From NCBI RefSeq assembly GCF_001597745.1, contig NZ_LUHJ01000050.1:136697-160696 (forward strand): a stretch of DNA of 24,000 bases, given 5' to 3'. The translations under genes and the position numbers were made by a program. The stretch's first letter is position 1, and each line of letters begins with the position of its first letter. The notes under the pieces are model-generated. The model ran no database searches. It had not been told where the DNA came from and worked only from the letters and a program-made list of their open reading frames with translations. The DNA comes from Anabaena sp. 4-3 (lineage in GTDB: Bacteria; Cyanobacteriota; Cyanobacteriia; Cyanobacteriales; Nostocaceae). Below are positions 10,514 to 24,000 of this stretch, piece after piece.

Positions 10514-11580
10514 CTAGCGAATCAAGTCGAAGGAGATATCGGTCTTACCGGTGATGTTGGAGTTGCGATCCAATTCATCTAGAATTGTGTTAACAACCCA
10601 GTTGAGGATGTTTAGACCACCTTGGTAGCCGAGGGTAGCGTAGCGGTGTAAGTGATGGCGATCGAAGATAGGATAACCAATGCGTACCATTGGGATCTTA
10701 GTGTCGCGCCACAGGTACTTACCGTAGGAGTTACCAACGAAGAAGTCTACAGGCTCGGTGAACAACAAGCTACGGAAGTGCCACAAGTCTTTTTGAATCC
10801 AAACTTTAGCTTCTTTACCGAAGGGGCTAGCGGCGAGGATAGCTTCCATTTCTTTCTTGAAGGCCTCATCGCCATTGTTGCAGAGGATGTGTACAGGTTC
10901 AGCACCCATCTCTAACAAGAAGCTGGTGACGGAGATGATCAAATCGGGATCGCCGTAGATAGCGAACTTCTTACCATGAATCCAAGCGTAGGAGTCGGTG
11001 ATAGCATCAACCAAACGACCGCGTTCAATTTCCAATTCTTCAGGAATGGGCTTACCGGTCAATTCAGAGATAGCAGTCAAGAACTCGTCAGTACCCTTAA
11101 CACCGAAGGGACGCAGAACTTTTGTTTCTTGGTTCCACTTGGTTTCGATGTATTCGCGGGTCTTGGGTGTGGTGTAAGCTTGAAGAGCAACTGTAGCTTT
11201 AGCGTTGATAGAATCAGCAGCATCTTCCAACTTAGTACCACCTGGGTACATTTCGTATTCACCGGTGTTGGGTGAATCAAAGTAGTCGCTGGTATCAGAC
11301 AGAATGGTGTAGTCAACACCCATTACACCCATCATCCGCTTCAATTCGCGGTTGTTACCTACATAGGTATCAAAACCAGGAATGAAGTTGATTTTGCCGT
11401 TGCTGGTAGCTTTCTTCTTACCTTCTGTCAGGTTAGACAGAATACCCCGCATCATGTTGTCGTAGCCAGTGGTGTGAGAACCTACGAAACTGGGGGTGTG
11501 AGCGAAGGGAACGGGGAAATCTTGAGGAATAGAACCAGCATTTCTAGAGTTGGTGATGAACGCGCCTAAGTCGTCACCAA
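10514..11580 (-). CDS. nifK: nitrogenase MoFe protein beta chain NifK, C-terminal segment (gene interrupted)
   Basis: The frame is open from 11578 (GDDLGAFITNSRNAGSIPQDFPVPFAHTPSFVGSHTTGYDNMMRGIL...) to the stop at 10514 (...ISFDLIR). There is no start or N-terminal third. It continues exactly where the 13605..14083 segment stops. Confidence 0.93.
11574..11580. repeat. nifK-element core direct repeat, left copy (TCACCAA)
   Basis: This is the only sequence shared by both nifK junctions. It corresponds to the Gly-Asp codons (TTGGTGA on the coding strand). Confidence 0.8.
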
Positions 11581-11643
11581 ATACATAATTAATGCGCTCA
11601 CAGACTTGCTCTACAGGGGTTTTATTATCTTGCTGGCTGGCGT

Positions 11644-11660
11644 TGCTTAGTTTTTACTTA
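11644..11660 (-). promoter_or_regulatory. 6-5-6 direct-repeat motif, recombinase-distal copy in the nifK element
   Basis: The minus strand reads TAAGTA-AAAAC-TAAGCA. A 63-nt gap separates it from the core at 11574..11580. It forms a 23-nt near-repeat (GGCNTTGCTTAGTTTTTNCTTAA) with 13458..13481. Confidence 0.45.
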
Positions 11661-11992
11661 ACTCTTTGAAATCTCCCCTTAATTTTTCAAGCAAAAAAGT
11701 AAATTTATTTCTTAGTTTTTGGTTAAATCTGGAGATATTTTCTACTGCAAAATAATATATTAACTATAACGGTTAAAATAACTTCTTTTCTTCCATATTT
11801 ACCGGAATAAGCTAACTAATTACTTATATAAAGTTATACATTTTACACCCATGAACAGTCAAAAAAGTTTAGTTTTTTCATAAAATAAGGTTGAATTTAA
11901 AAACGGTATCTAATGTACTTACTTTGTTATATTTTAGTGGTAATATTTGATAATTTTTAATCATCTACACAAAGATGTCATGCACAACATTA

Positions 11993-12019
11993 CAAAAAAA
12001 AGGGGGCTAACTACCCCTT
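11993..12019 (-). terminator. Rho-independent terminator of the nifK-element recombinase gene
   Basis: The minus strand reads AAGGGG-loop-CCCCTT followed by T8, about 20 nt after the stop codon at 12039. Confidence 0.6.
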
Positions 12020-12038
12020 CTAGCGTAATGCAATTGAT

Positions 12039-21859: not shown

Positions 21860-21950
21860 AAAGAGCAATAATATTATTATTTTAACCTATAAATGTTCAA
21901 TTTAAACAATGTTTGCTGTCATCATTGTCAATGATGAACAGTATTTTTAT

Positions 21951-21967
21951 TAGGGTAAATCTAGGGT
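21951..21967 (+). promoter_or_regulatory. 6-5-6 direct-repeat motif abutting the recombinase ATG (nifH element)
   Basis: TAGGGT-AAATC-TAGGGT immediately followed by the ATG at 21968, ~92 nt inside the nifH junction. Confidence 0.45.
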
Positions 21968-23395
21968 ATGAACAGAACACAGGAAGCATTTGCCGATTTT
22001 CAAGCAACAGCCATCACCGATGGAGGATATTTAGGCAGAATGCAAGCAGTAATAGAGCAACAAAATCACTTGGCGGCAAAATTAGAGGCGGAATTAAAGG
22101 CGGTAAATGCTAGACTGAAGGCGGCGAGGGTAAGTGTTTCTGTAAGGAAATCTGGTAATTCGCTGCAACTGAGAAGTACCCTACCCATTAAACCAGGAGA
22201 TATTGATAAAAAAGGTATAGGAACGAAACAATATGATGTTTCTTTGGGTATACCGTTTAATTTTGATGGTTTAACTACGGCGGAAGAAGAAGCTTATGAG
22301 TTAGGTAGATTGATTGCAAGAAAACAGTTTCAATGGACTGATAAATATCTAGGCAAAACTCGCCATAAAGTTAAAGCAAAAACTATTGGTGATTTGATTG
22401 CAGATTTCGAGCGCAATTATTTCCAAACTAGAAAACTTACTCTGAAGAGTGAGAACACTTTTAATAGTTATCTGTATATTGCTCAAACACACTTACCGCA
22501 GGATAAACCAGCAACAAATGTTAATTTTATTGAAGCTGTGCAAGGTTGTACTTCCTCAGATAGTGTAAAAAATGAGTTAATTAAAGTGATTCGGGTATTG
22601 TGTAAATGTTCTGGGTTAGAAGTCCCAGAGCTTAGTAATTTAAAAATCAAACCTAGTGCTACACGTAAGCGTGATATACCGACTGATGCAGAGATAGAGC
22701 AGGAATATCTCAAGTTTGAGACTTACGCCCTCAACCGTCCTAGTAAATTGCTCACCAGGGAAGATAGGAATAATTGGAAACTTTGGCGTTGGGTATATGG
22801 GATGTTAGCTACCTATGGATTACGACCAAGAGAAATTTTTGTCAATCCTGATTTAGATTGGTGGTTATCATCAGATAATACTATGAATACTTGGCGTGTG
22901 AACGAAGAATGTAAAACAGGTGAAAGGGAAGCTTTACCATTATATCCGCGCTGGGTGGAGATTTTTAATTTAAAAACTGATACGGAAGCGATTGAGTTAT
23001 TAAAGGCGAAGATAAAAAATAAGATTTCCAGTAAACAAATTAATTCGGCTCGACATGGTACAGACCGATGGTTTAGATTTGTCGGGATTCCTTTTCAACC
23101 TTATGATTTACGTCATGCTTGGGCTATTAGAGCGCATTTAATGGGGATTCCTATTAAAGCTGCTGCTGATAATTTGGGTCATTCGGTGAATATGCACACA
23201 TCCATTTATCAAAAATGGTTTAGTTTGGAAAATCGCAAGGTTGCTATTGAACAAGCTATTAAGAAAAAGTCTAAGGTGCAAGAGTTGCAAGAAATGGTAA
23301 TTGCGCTACAGCAGGAAAATGAGCAATTGAGAAGAGAAAATGAGAGGTTGCGGTTACAGATAGAAAATCAAGGAGTGATACCCATGATGAATTAA
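21968..23395 (+). CDS. XisA-family site-specific tyrosine recombinase (nifH element)
   Basis: 475 aa with the same conserved blocks as the other two: LQLRSTLPIKPGD, TTAEEEAYELGRLIARKQFQWTDKYLG, WRWVYGMLATYGLRPREIFVNPDLDWWLSSDN, YDLRHAWAIRAHLMGIPIKAAADNLGHSV..H..IYQKWF. A C-terminal coiled coil is present. Confidence 0.9.
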   Translation: MNRTQEAFADFQATAITDGGYLGRMQAVIEQQNHLAAKLEAELKAVNARLKAARVSVSVRKSGNSLQLRSTLPIKPGDIDKKGIGTKQYDVSLGIPFNFDGLTTAEEEAYELGRLIARKQFQWTDKYLGKTRHKVKAKTIGDLIADFERNYFQTRKLTLKSENTFNSYLYIAQTHLPQDKPATNVNFIEAVQGCTSSDSVKNELIKVIRVLCKCSGLEVPELSNLKIKPSATRKRDIPTDAEIEQEYLKFETYALNRPSKLLTREDRNNWKLWRWVYGMLATYGLRPREIFVNPDLDWWLSSDNTMNTWRVNEECKTGEREALPLYPRWVEIFNLKTDTEAIELLKAKIKNKISSKQINSARHGTDRWFRFVGIPFQPYDLRHAWAIRAHLMGIPIKAAADNLGHSVNMHTSIYQKWFSLENRKVAIEQAIKKKSKVQELQEMVIALQQENEQLRRENERLRLQIENQGVIPMMN

Positions 23396-23609
23396 GCAAA
23401 GGTTCTGGCGGTGCTGATTAAGAATATGAATTTATCTCACGCAGAGACGAGCCAGTGCGTTGGGCGGCTTCGCCGACTTGTAGCAACTGGCGTGCAGAGG
23501 CGCAGAGAGAGAGTAAGATTTTGTAGAAGCAAAAATTAAAATTTTATGCTTCAATTCAGCAACGCCAAATTTTTCATACTGAAGAATTAAGCGAGGTGTT
23601 GGGAAGTGA

Positions 23610-23822
23610 CTAAGCCAACACTAAAATACTTTCTTGTTGAGTATCGGCAAACTGGTTAATGATGTTAAAGTTATCTCGCAAAATTTGCACAATTTTAGAT
23701 GTTGGGCTGTTACCAATACGAAGAAATATAAATTTTGGAGGATGACCATAAAGTAAACTGCGTTGATGAAAATCAGAGTCTTTAGAAACAATCACAAAAT
23801 CATTCAATTTCGCGTATTCCAA
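23610..23822 (-). pseudogene. C-terminal fragment of a PIN-like DUF5615-type (toxin-like) gene
   Basis: ...VIVSKDSDFHQRSLLYGHPPKFIFLRIGNSPTSKI... resembles the C-terminal half of DUF5615 proteins. The ORF only 'starts' at a TTG, and the N-terminal half with the acidic catalytic residues is missing. Confidence 0.4.
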
Positions 23823-24000
23823 TCGACACGAAGCGGTTGTTTTTTTGGTCTTTTAATCCCATACTCTTGTATAAGTGTCCATTTGAACTGCTGACAGCAA
23901 GACTCAAGCAATTTTTGAAAAGCAGCTTTAACGGCAGTCTCATGCACAACACCCAATTTGTTAAAATTTTCTAACTCTTCGTAATACTGCTTAATAGGTT
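23804..24000 (-). pseudogene. truncated ORF resembling the N-terminus of large restriction-modification-type DNA methyltransferases (5' end outside the window)
   Basis: The open frame entering from the window edge reads PIKQYYEELENFNKLGVVHETAVKAAFQKLLESCCQQFKWTLIQEYGIKR...LRVD, then stops at 23804 in another frame of the DUF5615 fragment. The family call is from memory of similar N-termini and is weak. Confidence 0.25.

Follow-up and report, generated by a model that had tools for sequence, protein, structure and literature searches.

Three XisA/XisC-family recombinase elements in the nifHDK operon of Anabaena sp. 4-3

Anatomy of the interrupted operon

The draft genome of Anabaena sp. 4-3, from Texas salt flats, was announced in a report that is silent on nif elements. 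Here we describe a 24,000-nucleotide (nt) stretch of this genome, hereafter the window, in which the nitrogenase structural genes nifH, nifD and nifK lie on the minus strand and are each interrupted by a separate element carrying its own recombinase gene. An earlier note on this DNA had placed breaks in nifK at 13605/11580, in nifD at 19903/14427 and in nifH near 21858, and both an open reading frame (ORF) map and direct reading of the junctions find all three breaks at these positions. The gene fragments and the intervening elements, in window coordinates, are:

10514-11580, minus strand: nifK 3' fragment, codons ~160-512 plus stop, holding a core copy TCACCAA at 11574-11580 (Pfam Oxidored_nitro, E=7e-76)
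11581-13604, minus strand: nifK element (nifK-469); with one 7-bp core, a predicted circle of 2,031 bp; G+C 0.346
13605-14083, minus strand: nifK 5' fragment, codons 1-159, with a core copy at 13605-13611 (Pfam DUF3364 and Oxidored_nitro)
14288-14427, minus strand: nifD 3' fragment, last 43 codons plus stop, with core CGGAGTAAT at 14419-14427
14428-19902, plus strand: nifD element (classical nifD-1355); with one 9-bp core, a predicted circle of 5,484 bp; G+C 0.363
19903-21265, minus strand: nifD 5' fragment, codons 1-454, with core at 19903-19911 (Pfam Oxidored_nitro, E=1e-84)
21399-21857, minus strand: nifH 3' fragment, last 152 codons plus stop, with core CTTCACG at 21851-21857 as read on the plus strand (Pfam Fer4_NifH, E=1e-46, profile positions 152-270)
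21858-24000, plus strand: nifH element (nifH-429), running past the end of the window; G+C 0.372

The nifK 5' fragment reads to ...CMAEVIG, continues for six foreign codons to a stop, and is taken up again by the 3' fragment at DDLGAF; for nifD the break follows ...HSWDYS, with 26 foreign codons before a stop, and the 3' fragment restarts at GPYHGY. The nifH 3' fragment begins REGKAQEIY, with foreign DNA from 21858 onwards, and coding sequence for the NifH N-terminus was not found anywhere in the window, so that the far end of the nifH element must lie beyond 24000. As sequenced, and as the earlier note had stated, no full-length product can be made from nifH, nifD or nifK.

Direct repeats delimit the two elements whose ends both lie within the window. 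The nifK core, TCACCAA (TTGGTGA in the nif sense), is 7 bp long and stands at 11574 and 13605, whilst the 9-bp nifD repeat CGGAGTAAT has just two copies in the window, at 14419-14427 and 19903-19911. Both sequences had been correctly given before; the third core, for which the earlier note offered no sequence, can be read from relatives as (C)CGTGAAG (CTTCACG on the plus strand), and as the element-side base preceding CGTGAAG is T the nifH repeat is probably 7 bp in length. Joining repeat to repeat generates uninterrupted, in-frame reading frames for a NifK of 512 amino acids and a NifD of 497. Residues 1-512 of the rebuilt NifK align as a single segment, at 90%, with an intact orthologue in comparison locus L035, and residues 1-488 of the rebuilt NifD, again as a single segment, with an intact orthologue in L007. 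Deletions of 2.0 and 5.5 kb, as proposed earlier, are accordingly refined to the circle sizes listed above. The nifH junction occupies a position identical to that in relatives in which both junctions are visible. The insertion junctions are in frame, dozens of other genomes have theirs at these very codons, and the G+C content of the elements (0.35-0.37) contrasts with that of nif coding sequence (0.46); this anatomy of in-frame junctions, shared codon positions and G+C contrast is far beyond chance.

The genome is an Illumina/Velvet short-read draft, and Hilton, Meeks & Zehr (2016, PLoS One), who catalogued 101 interruption elements, flagged several 'odd assemblies' at such loci; both points bear on the possibility that recombinase-bearing repeats were misplaced into the nif genes during assembly. 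We regard the chance of such an artefact as negligible: the gene fragments are all collinear and in one orientation, two of the elements have matching direct repeats at both junctions, the three recombinases (recK, recD and recH, described below) share only 44-48% mutual identity and are too divergent for collapse, and the same junctions are present in complete genomes.

A second possibility is that the insertions are scars left by dead mobile elements in an unused and decaying nifHDK copy, perhaps with another nitrogenase copy elsewhere in the genome, as would fit the failure of all three genes, in the window as it stands, to give a full-length product. However, the nif fragments contain neither frameshifts nor stops, the junctions restore exact full-length ORFs, every catalytic motif is kept in the recombinases, and the downstream nifE, nifN, nifX, DUF269, hesA and hesB genes are intact. 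The ratio of nonsynonymous to synonymous substitution rates (dN/dS) is 0.056 for nifD (compared with A. azotica), 0.056 for the 5' part of nifK (compared with PCC 7524), 0.17 for the 3' part of nifH and 0.06-0.11 for the recombinases (recD 0.06, recK 0.09, recH 0.11); on these substitution ratios (0.06-0.17) all parts are under purifying selection. Taken together, the low dN/dS values, the exact in-frame junctions and the otherwise intact nif cluster argue strongly against a pseudo-operon, and the same configuration recurs in dozens of diazotrophic species. Nor would a second nitrogenase copy imply decay of this one: A. variabilis ATCC 29413 carries the nifD element (Table B of Hilton et al.), and its nif1 cluster is described (PMC4284476 and PMC8510180) as expressed only in heterocysts beside a separate nif2 cluster. 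We consider decay of the operon to be highly improbable.

We instead read the locus, with high confidence, as the vegetative-cell (germ-line) configuration of a heterocyst nifHDK operon containing three independent elements, nifK-469, nifD-1355 and nifH-429, each with a cognate tyrosine recombinase of the XisA/XisC family. Since the three elements are separate and differ in both recombinase paralogue and core, three precise excisions would be needed to rebuild nifHDK, in keeping with the expectation of the earlier note. That excision takes place, and that it does so in heterocysts, we infer by homology with nifD- and nifH-type elements elsewhere.

Recombinases and catalogued relatives

Each element contains an XisA paralogue of 472-475 amino acids that adjoins one of its ends and reads inward, an arrangement which had been noted previously and which the ORF positions bear out:

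12039-13463, minus strand: recK, 474 amino acids, co-directional with nifK, 141 bp from the element edge, reading inward
14548-15966, plus strand: recD, the xisA orthologue, 472 amino acids, antisense to nifD, 120 bp from the element edge, reading inward
21968-23395, plus strand: recH (XisG in Nodularia), 475 amino acids, antisense to nifH, 110 bp from the element edge, reading inward

Direct reading identifies the catalytic motifs G(L/C)RPxE, PYDLRHAWAIRAH (PYDLRH), LGH(S/T) and xYQ(K/R)WF in all three proteins, and R285, Y377, R380, H403 and Y412 are invariant in an alignment of 43 sequences. The recombinases thus carry an R-Y-R-Y tetrad in which Tyr replaces the usual His, as described for XisA, XisC and XisG (Voss et al. 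2013; Carrasco 2005 as cited therein). On the evidence of their sequences, recK, recD and recH are intact and possess the catalytic motifs of the XisA/XisC family. recK is 100% identical to the NCBI protein P0001 and 70% identical to Nos7524_1209; recD is 100% identical to P0061, 92% identical to the XisA of the PCC 7524 nifD element (P0089) and 90.3% identical to A. variabilis XisA (P0109). P0001 and P0061 are proteins of Anabaena sp. 4-3, both encoded on a contig of 238,862 bp, and carry precomputed Pfam assignments to XisAC_N (PF27551) and XisAC_2nd (PF27132); there is no such record for recH. recH is 79-92% identical to homologues from 36 species, every one of which adjoins a nifH 3' fragment, the value of 92% being that for the A. 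azotica nifH-element recombinase. Against A. variabilis XisA, full-length identity is 44-49% for recH and recK. In a neighbour-joining tree with XisA homologues, of the kind that the earlier note had called for, each of the three falls in a clade specific for its own target site.

All three element types are already catalogued, and the locus, though remarkably compact, is otherwise a commonplace case of excision-based gene repair in heterocysts that fix nitrogen. Table B of Hilton et al. (2016) lists nifD-1355 (ATTACTCCG, tyrosine, end/-), nifH-429 (CCGTGAAG, tyrosine, 109 bp from the edge, end/-) and nifK-469 (ATCGGTGA, tyrosine, begin/+). The features by which these authors recognise an element, namely a collinear split, short direct repeats and a restored ORF, are all found for nifK and nifD, and for nifH one junction is visible; the placement of the recombinase genes likewise follows their rule, with recK begin/+ at 141 bp, recD end/- at 120 bp and recH end/- at 110 bp from the edge. 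The nifD core here, ATTACTCCG in the nif sense, starts at nt 1355, which is the position in Table B, and CGTGAAG in nifH starts at ~nt 430, compared with 429 for CCGTGAAG in Hilton et al. For nifK the core starts at nt 473 and that of PCC 7524, TCGGTGA, at nt 470, which makes them the same variant within +/-10 bp; this insertion site is common to the nifK-469 of Hilton et al. and to comparison loci L037 (PCC 7524), L039 (Gloeotrichia), L042 (a Nostocaceae metagenome-assembled genome, MAG), L043 (Okeanomitos) and L044 (Sphaerospermopsis).

Interruption of nif genes elsewhere was acknowledged in the earlier note, and the state in which all three genes are interrupted is not new either, as Table B of Hilton et al. 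(2016) has exactly this trio under Nostoc sp. PCC 7524. There the same three tyrosine-recombinase variants (elements #2 nifD, #3 nifK and #4 nifH) occupy one operon: nifK at ~nt 469 with core ATCGGTGA, nifD at 1353 with core GGATTACTCCG and nifH at 428 with core TCCGTGAAG. The recombinase gene is co-directional and at the beginning of the nifK element but antisense and at the end of the other two, a placement identical to that in Anabaena sp. 4-3. The order at the PCC 7524 locus is also the same, with antisense xisA followed by the nifK 5' fragment, a co-directional recombinase gene, the nifK 3' fragment, a Mo-nitro_C ORF and nifE. The elements are, however, smaller here (2.0 versus 5.6 kb for nifK and 5.5 versus 15.9 kb for nifD), the cores are 1-2 bp shorter, recK is only 70% identical to its counterpart, and the cargo differs, with a REP-associated tyrosine transposase (RAYT) here and Rep_trans, AAA ATPase, Alr1449 and others in PCC 7524, which additionally has an fdxN element. 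The trio is present, too, on one 35.5-kb contig of the Nostocaceae MAG (L023 and L042), and Sphaerospermopsis SIO1G1/SIO1G2 appear to carry it, with the elements spread across two assemblies (L031 and L044) rather than at one locus. More widely, the nifH-429 element is found in 36 species representatives, in relatives at sizes of 4.6-6.8 kb, and nifK-469 elements in PCC 7524, Gloeotrichia, Okeanomitos, Sphaerospermopsis, the Nostocaceae MAG and a metagenome. Anabaena sp. 4-3, a genome not surveyed before, is a further instance of catalogued variants in a known combination.

Comparison with systems studied experimentally supports these assignments. The nifD element of PCC 7120 (Golden 1985; Lammers 1986; Golden & Wiest 1988) matches the present one in insertion site, HSWDYS|GPYHGY, and in core; its xisA likewise lies ~118-120 bp from the edge nearer nifK and points the same way, and the two recombinases are orthologous. 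That element, however, is 11.3 kb long compared with 5.5 kb here, has a repeat of 11 rather than 9 bp and carries different cargo; papers citing this work report that excision of the nifD/XisA type has been demonstrated in PCC 7120 heterocysts. The nifH1 elements of Nodularia spumigena, with XisG (Vintila 2011; Voss 2013), and of A. cylindrica ATCC 29414 have the same nifH site (PIR|EGK), the core CCGTGAAG and a recombinase gene that is antisense and 109-110 bp from the edge, whose product is 84-87% identical to recH, although only one element end is visible in our window. The 5,736-bp element of A. cylindrica is absent from heterocyst DNA (bioRxiv 10.1101/629832), and excision of this type is known from Nodularia as well (Voss 2013). 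The nifBHDK genes of Calothrix sp. NIES-4101, in 13 fragments (Uesaka et al. 2024), are similar in that nifH, nifD and nifK are all interrupted, every element having a recombinase of its own beside a terminal repeat, and their restoration has been proven by sequencing and polymerase chain reaction. That locus, in contrast, extends over 350 kb with mostly serine recombinases, involves inversions and has nifK split at codon ~425, whereas here there would be three simple tyrosine-recombinase excisions within ~13 kb.

As a phenomenon nothing here is new, the developmental excision of nif interruption elements having been known since 1985. What the locus has to offer is of a practical kind: we have encountered no more compact version (a 2.0-kb nifK element and a 5.5-kb nifD element, all within ~13 kb), and it provides a convenient substrate both for examining cross-reactivity among three paralogous recombinases and for a first experimental test of nifK-469.

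Paired heptamers and a proposed mechanism

None of the cores is long enough to be unique. There are 11 copies of TCACCAA in the window, a frequency on which we rejected the extra copy at 19893, 3 bp from the far nifD core, as a functional cross-site, and CCGTGAAG occurs 111 times in the Nodularia genome, where the manner in which the right copy is chosen was left open (Voss et al. 2013). Elements of all three families have, at both ends, paired heptamers separated by an N4 spacer (an 11-bp period), which are oriented in the sense of the recombinase gene and are of family-specific sequence: TAAnCAA for nifK, TAGGCTA for nifD and TAGGGTA for nifH, with the far pairs ~85-180 bp inside the element end. 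Those in the window are:

13463-13480, minus strand: nifK proximal pair, TAAGCAA-N4-TAAGCAA, abutting the recK ATG and kept in all six nifK-469 elements for which there is DNA
11708-11725 and 11643-11660, minus strand: nifK distal pairs, 151 and 86 bp from the far core
14519-14536, plus strand: nifD proximal pair, TAGGCTA-N4-TAGGCTA, upstream of xisA
19722-19739, plus strand: nifD distal pair, TAACCAA-N4-TAAGCAA
19824-19841, plus strand: nifD distal pair, TAAGCTA-N4-TAGACTC
21951-21968, plus strand: nifH proximal pair, TAGGGTA-N4-TAGGGTA, abutting the recH ATG

For nifK the window contains four matches compared with 0.55 expected. L037, L039 and L042-L044 share the layout, and the 5.3-kb interior of the PCC 7524 element is free of such pairs. 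In the nifD family a block, TTTAGGCTAAAAAT, is conserved in relatives ~85 bp from the far core, whilst in the nifH family two far-end pairs lie ~150 and ~90 bp from the core in 11 relatives. The Gloeotrichia nifK element has TAACCAA at both ends, and we considered this covariation as proof of binding but rejected it, position 4 of the heptamer being generally variable.

An AlphaFold model of recK (predicted local distance difference test score, pLDDT, of 84) comprises an N-terminal helix, a three-stranded sheet and helix (residues 63-123), a helical core-binding domain, a catalytic domain and a long C-terminal helix. The predicted sheet and helix of residues 63-123 have the layout of the arm-binding domain of lambda integrase (Int). 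In Foldseek searches with this model, full-length lambda Int aligned over 387 columns, compared with 311 for its 75-356 fragment. The likeness to lambda Int, which we intend as a mechanistic analogy only, thus consists of the predicted N-terminal sheet and helix, the Foldseek matches and the paired repeats ~85-180 bp from the cores. Unlike the lambda system, neither an excisionase nor sites for integration host factor were identified here, and in XisA proteins there is an additional helix at the N-terminus, together with a long, coiled-coil-like one at the C-terminus; binding of these proteins to the heptamers is putative. These comparisons of sequence and predicted fold suggest that the paired heptamers are candidate arm-type sites. 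It is possible, albeit to our minds somewhat short of an even chance, that the XisA-family recombinases are heterobivalent enzymes resembling lambda Int, with the specificity that the short cores lack supplied by the family-specific heptamer pairs. No link between XisA and arm-type sites was found in the literature searched, with key older papers lying outside that search. A rival reading of the proximal pairs is that they may be -10-like promoter or operator elements.

On the mechanism that we propose, each recombinase would, late in heterocyst differentiation, pair the two direct repeats flanking its own element, these being, in the nif sense, TTGGTGA for nifK, ATTACTCCG for nifD and (C)CGTGAAG for nifH. 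The elements would leave as circles of 2,031 bp, 5,484 bp and, for nifH, probably ~5 kb, and one copy of each repeat would stay behind as coding sequence in an intact nifK, nifD or nifH. Specificity for the correct core copies would derive from the paired heptamers at both ends, bound by a lambda-Int-like N-terminal arm-binding domain.

Several points count against the picture developed above. Experimental data on excision in this strain were not found in the literature, and nor was any experimental test of excision by the tyrosine-type nifK-469. The window contains neither the nifH 5' fragment nor the second end of the nifH element, so that restoration of nifH is deduced from relatives only. 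Pfam and NCBIfam profile scans of the three recombinases gave only sub-threshold Phage_integrase and XerA matches (Phage_integrase at 21.8-23.2 bits compared with a 27.1-bit cutoff), and assignment to the XisA/XisC family rests on homology over the full length and on the precomputed XisAC domains of identical proteins. Support for arm-type sites is purely comparative and the proximal heptamers also fit a -10-like TAN3T, whilst the nifD distal pairs are degenerate and position 4 of the heptamer is variable within the nifK family.

Were the proposal correct, the three cognate sets of recombinase and heptamers, side by side at one locus, would constitute a ready-made specificity code, and the question of Voss et al. 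(2013) as to how the right CCGTGAAG is chosen would be answered.

Regulation, orientation and associated elements

Upstream of recD there are two TGT-N9-ACA motifs on the plus strand, at 14478-14492 and 14494-14508, within an xisA upstream region that is conserved in five other nifD elements; two more lie upstream of recH, at 21894-21908 and 21926-21940 on the plus strand, in a region which, with its heptamer pair, is conserved in 12 relatives. recK has only a degenerate TGC-N9-ACA at -65. TGT-N9-ACA is the NtcA/VF1 form of the motif. Canonical NtcA sites (GTAN8TAC) are absent upstream of all three recombinase genes, where only this older form is present.

These motifs bear on whether the elements are under developmental control at all. 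They could be ordinary integrative mobile elements that excise and reintegrate opportunistically, their presence in nif genes reflecting no more than target preference. Hilton et al. report elements in genes unconnected with N2 fixation and in non-heterocystous cyanobacteria, the cargo (RAYT, a toxin-like DUF5615 protein and unassigned ORFs) is of a selfish kind, and the inverted nifK elements described below imply at least one independent integration. Set against this, nifD- and nifH-type elements are reported to excise specifically during heterocyst differentiation, NtcA binds at xisA, which is a known NtcA target, recD and recH are preceded by conserved NtcA-like motifs, and the vertical-looking clades, each tied to a single target site, fit long-term domestication. 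We find this account distinctly unlikely as compared with elements whose excision belongs to heterocyst development.

The earlier note described recK as co-directional with the nif operon and recD and recH as antisense, which is correct, and proposed that orientation might impose an order on the excisions. The nifK-469 recombinase clade, however, consists of two subclades in which the element has opposite orientations at the same core. It is co-directional here and likewise in PCC 7524 and Gloeotrichia; in the Nostocaceae MAG, Okeanomitos and Sphaerospermopsis it is inverted, with core T(C/T)GGTGA, the recombinase gene at the end and antisense, and an upstream region that is equally conserved. 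The inverted elements, which we compared with window positions 11574-13611, are:

L042, 7440-9330: Nostocaceae MAG
L043, 9850-11700: Okeanomitos
L044, 9770-11820: Sphaerospermopsis

Most nifK-469 elements are minimal, at 1.8-2.0 kb with the recombinase gene alone, and the one in the window likewise consists of recK and end regions only. Read in the sense of the recombinase gene, the cores of the two subclades are TTGGTGA and TCACCGA, with shared TC/TT...GA ends. The quasi-palindromic nifK core (TC..GA) may permit both orientations and, if the lambda-Int-like reading of the enzymes holds, would explain why both occur. Orientation is evidently not essential to the nifK element, inverted as it is in a sister clade, and the idea of an order imposed by orientation is weakened to that extent.

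A more specific version of that idea is an ordered cascade, in which recK would be expressed mainly by read-through from the nif promoter, and only once the nifH and nifD elements have left, so that the excisions would follow a fixed order, with the nifK element last, and would be self-terminating. recK starts 141 bp past the nifK break with no terminator-like site between, and is followed by a hairpin:

11998-12021, minus strand: terminator-like hairpin (AGAAGGGG...CCCCTTTT plus T-run), 18 bp past the recK stop, by consensus match only

In the unexcised state this hairpin would halt nifK' read-through ahead of the nifK 3' fragment. The contrast between the two conserved TGT-N9-ACA motifs of recD and of recH and the single degenerate motif of recK is also as a cascade would predict, and together with the hairpin leaves room for recK to depend on read-through. 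Nevertheless, L042, L043 and L044 are inverted at the same core with the same upstream region, indicating that co-directionality is not required; the elements of Hilton et al. divide into 23 of begin/+ and 70 of end/- type, with mixed orientations within single variants; and a sigma-70 promoter scan was uninformative (38 sites compared with 35.5 expected). On balance we consider the cascade unlikely. The heptamers, the predicted arm-binding-like fold and the occurrence of the nifK element in either orientation could help in designing cross-reactivity experiments and in putting the enzymes to use as orthogonal recombinases.

Besides recombinase genes, the nifD and nifH elements carry the following cargo:

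16653-17204, minus strand: RAYT in the nifD element (NCBIfam NF047646, 183 bits compared with an 80-bit cutoff)
17478-19418, plus strand: two ORFs of 207 and 370 amino acids in the nifD element, without a family match
23610-23822, minus strand: toxin-like DUF5615 ORF in the nifH element (Pfam PF18480, E=2.5e-16), N-terminally short

The RAYT gene is flanked by 74-nt palindromic repeats (GTAGGGTGCGTCAGC...GCTGACGCACCCTAC), with copies at 16082, 16573, 17274 and 19435, so that a REPIN-RAYT system (16082-17347 and 19435-19508) rides as cargo inside the nifD excision element. The final 200 bases of the window, where the frames are broken by stops, show no evident DUF433 partner for the DUF5615 ORF; the Okeanomitos nifD element (L043) also has DUF433/DUF5615 pairs.

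Some relatives have additional interruptions. In Gloeotrichia echinulata GP01 (L039, 9383-18669) nifK is in three pieces, separated by two different elements, one of tyrosine type at codon ~160 and the other a serine-recombinase element at codon ~425 (Resolvase/Recombinase/Zn_ribbon ORF, 16680-18227). In L002, L026, L028, L029 and L030, the closest relative A. azotica FACHB-119 among them, the match of the nifH 5' fragment is confined to residues ~45-144, which points to a second element near nt 140 of nifH in those relatives.

Finally, an OMEGA-type (IsrB-like) element lies on the nif strand at 8439-9749 (minus), between the Mo-nitro_C ORF (10024-10350) and nifE (6939-8378). Its ORF of 364 amino acids has an RRXRR domain (Pfam, E=8e-49) as well as PLMP and RuvC-like motifs, with no HNH insert visible, and gives a partial match to NCBIfam guided_IscB (108 bits compared with a 175-bit cutoff). 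Rfam returned no match in the window at gathering thresholds; directly upstream of the ORF, at 9555-9749, there is a full-length but sub-threshold match to HEARO/omega-RNA (44.5 bits compared with a gathering score of 83 bits, E=1e-7). In PCC 7524 only 234 bp separate the Mo-nitro_C ORF from nifE, indicating that the IsrB-like element is a strain-specific insertion in the nif cluster.

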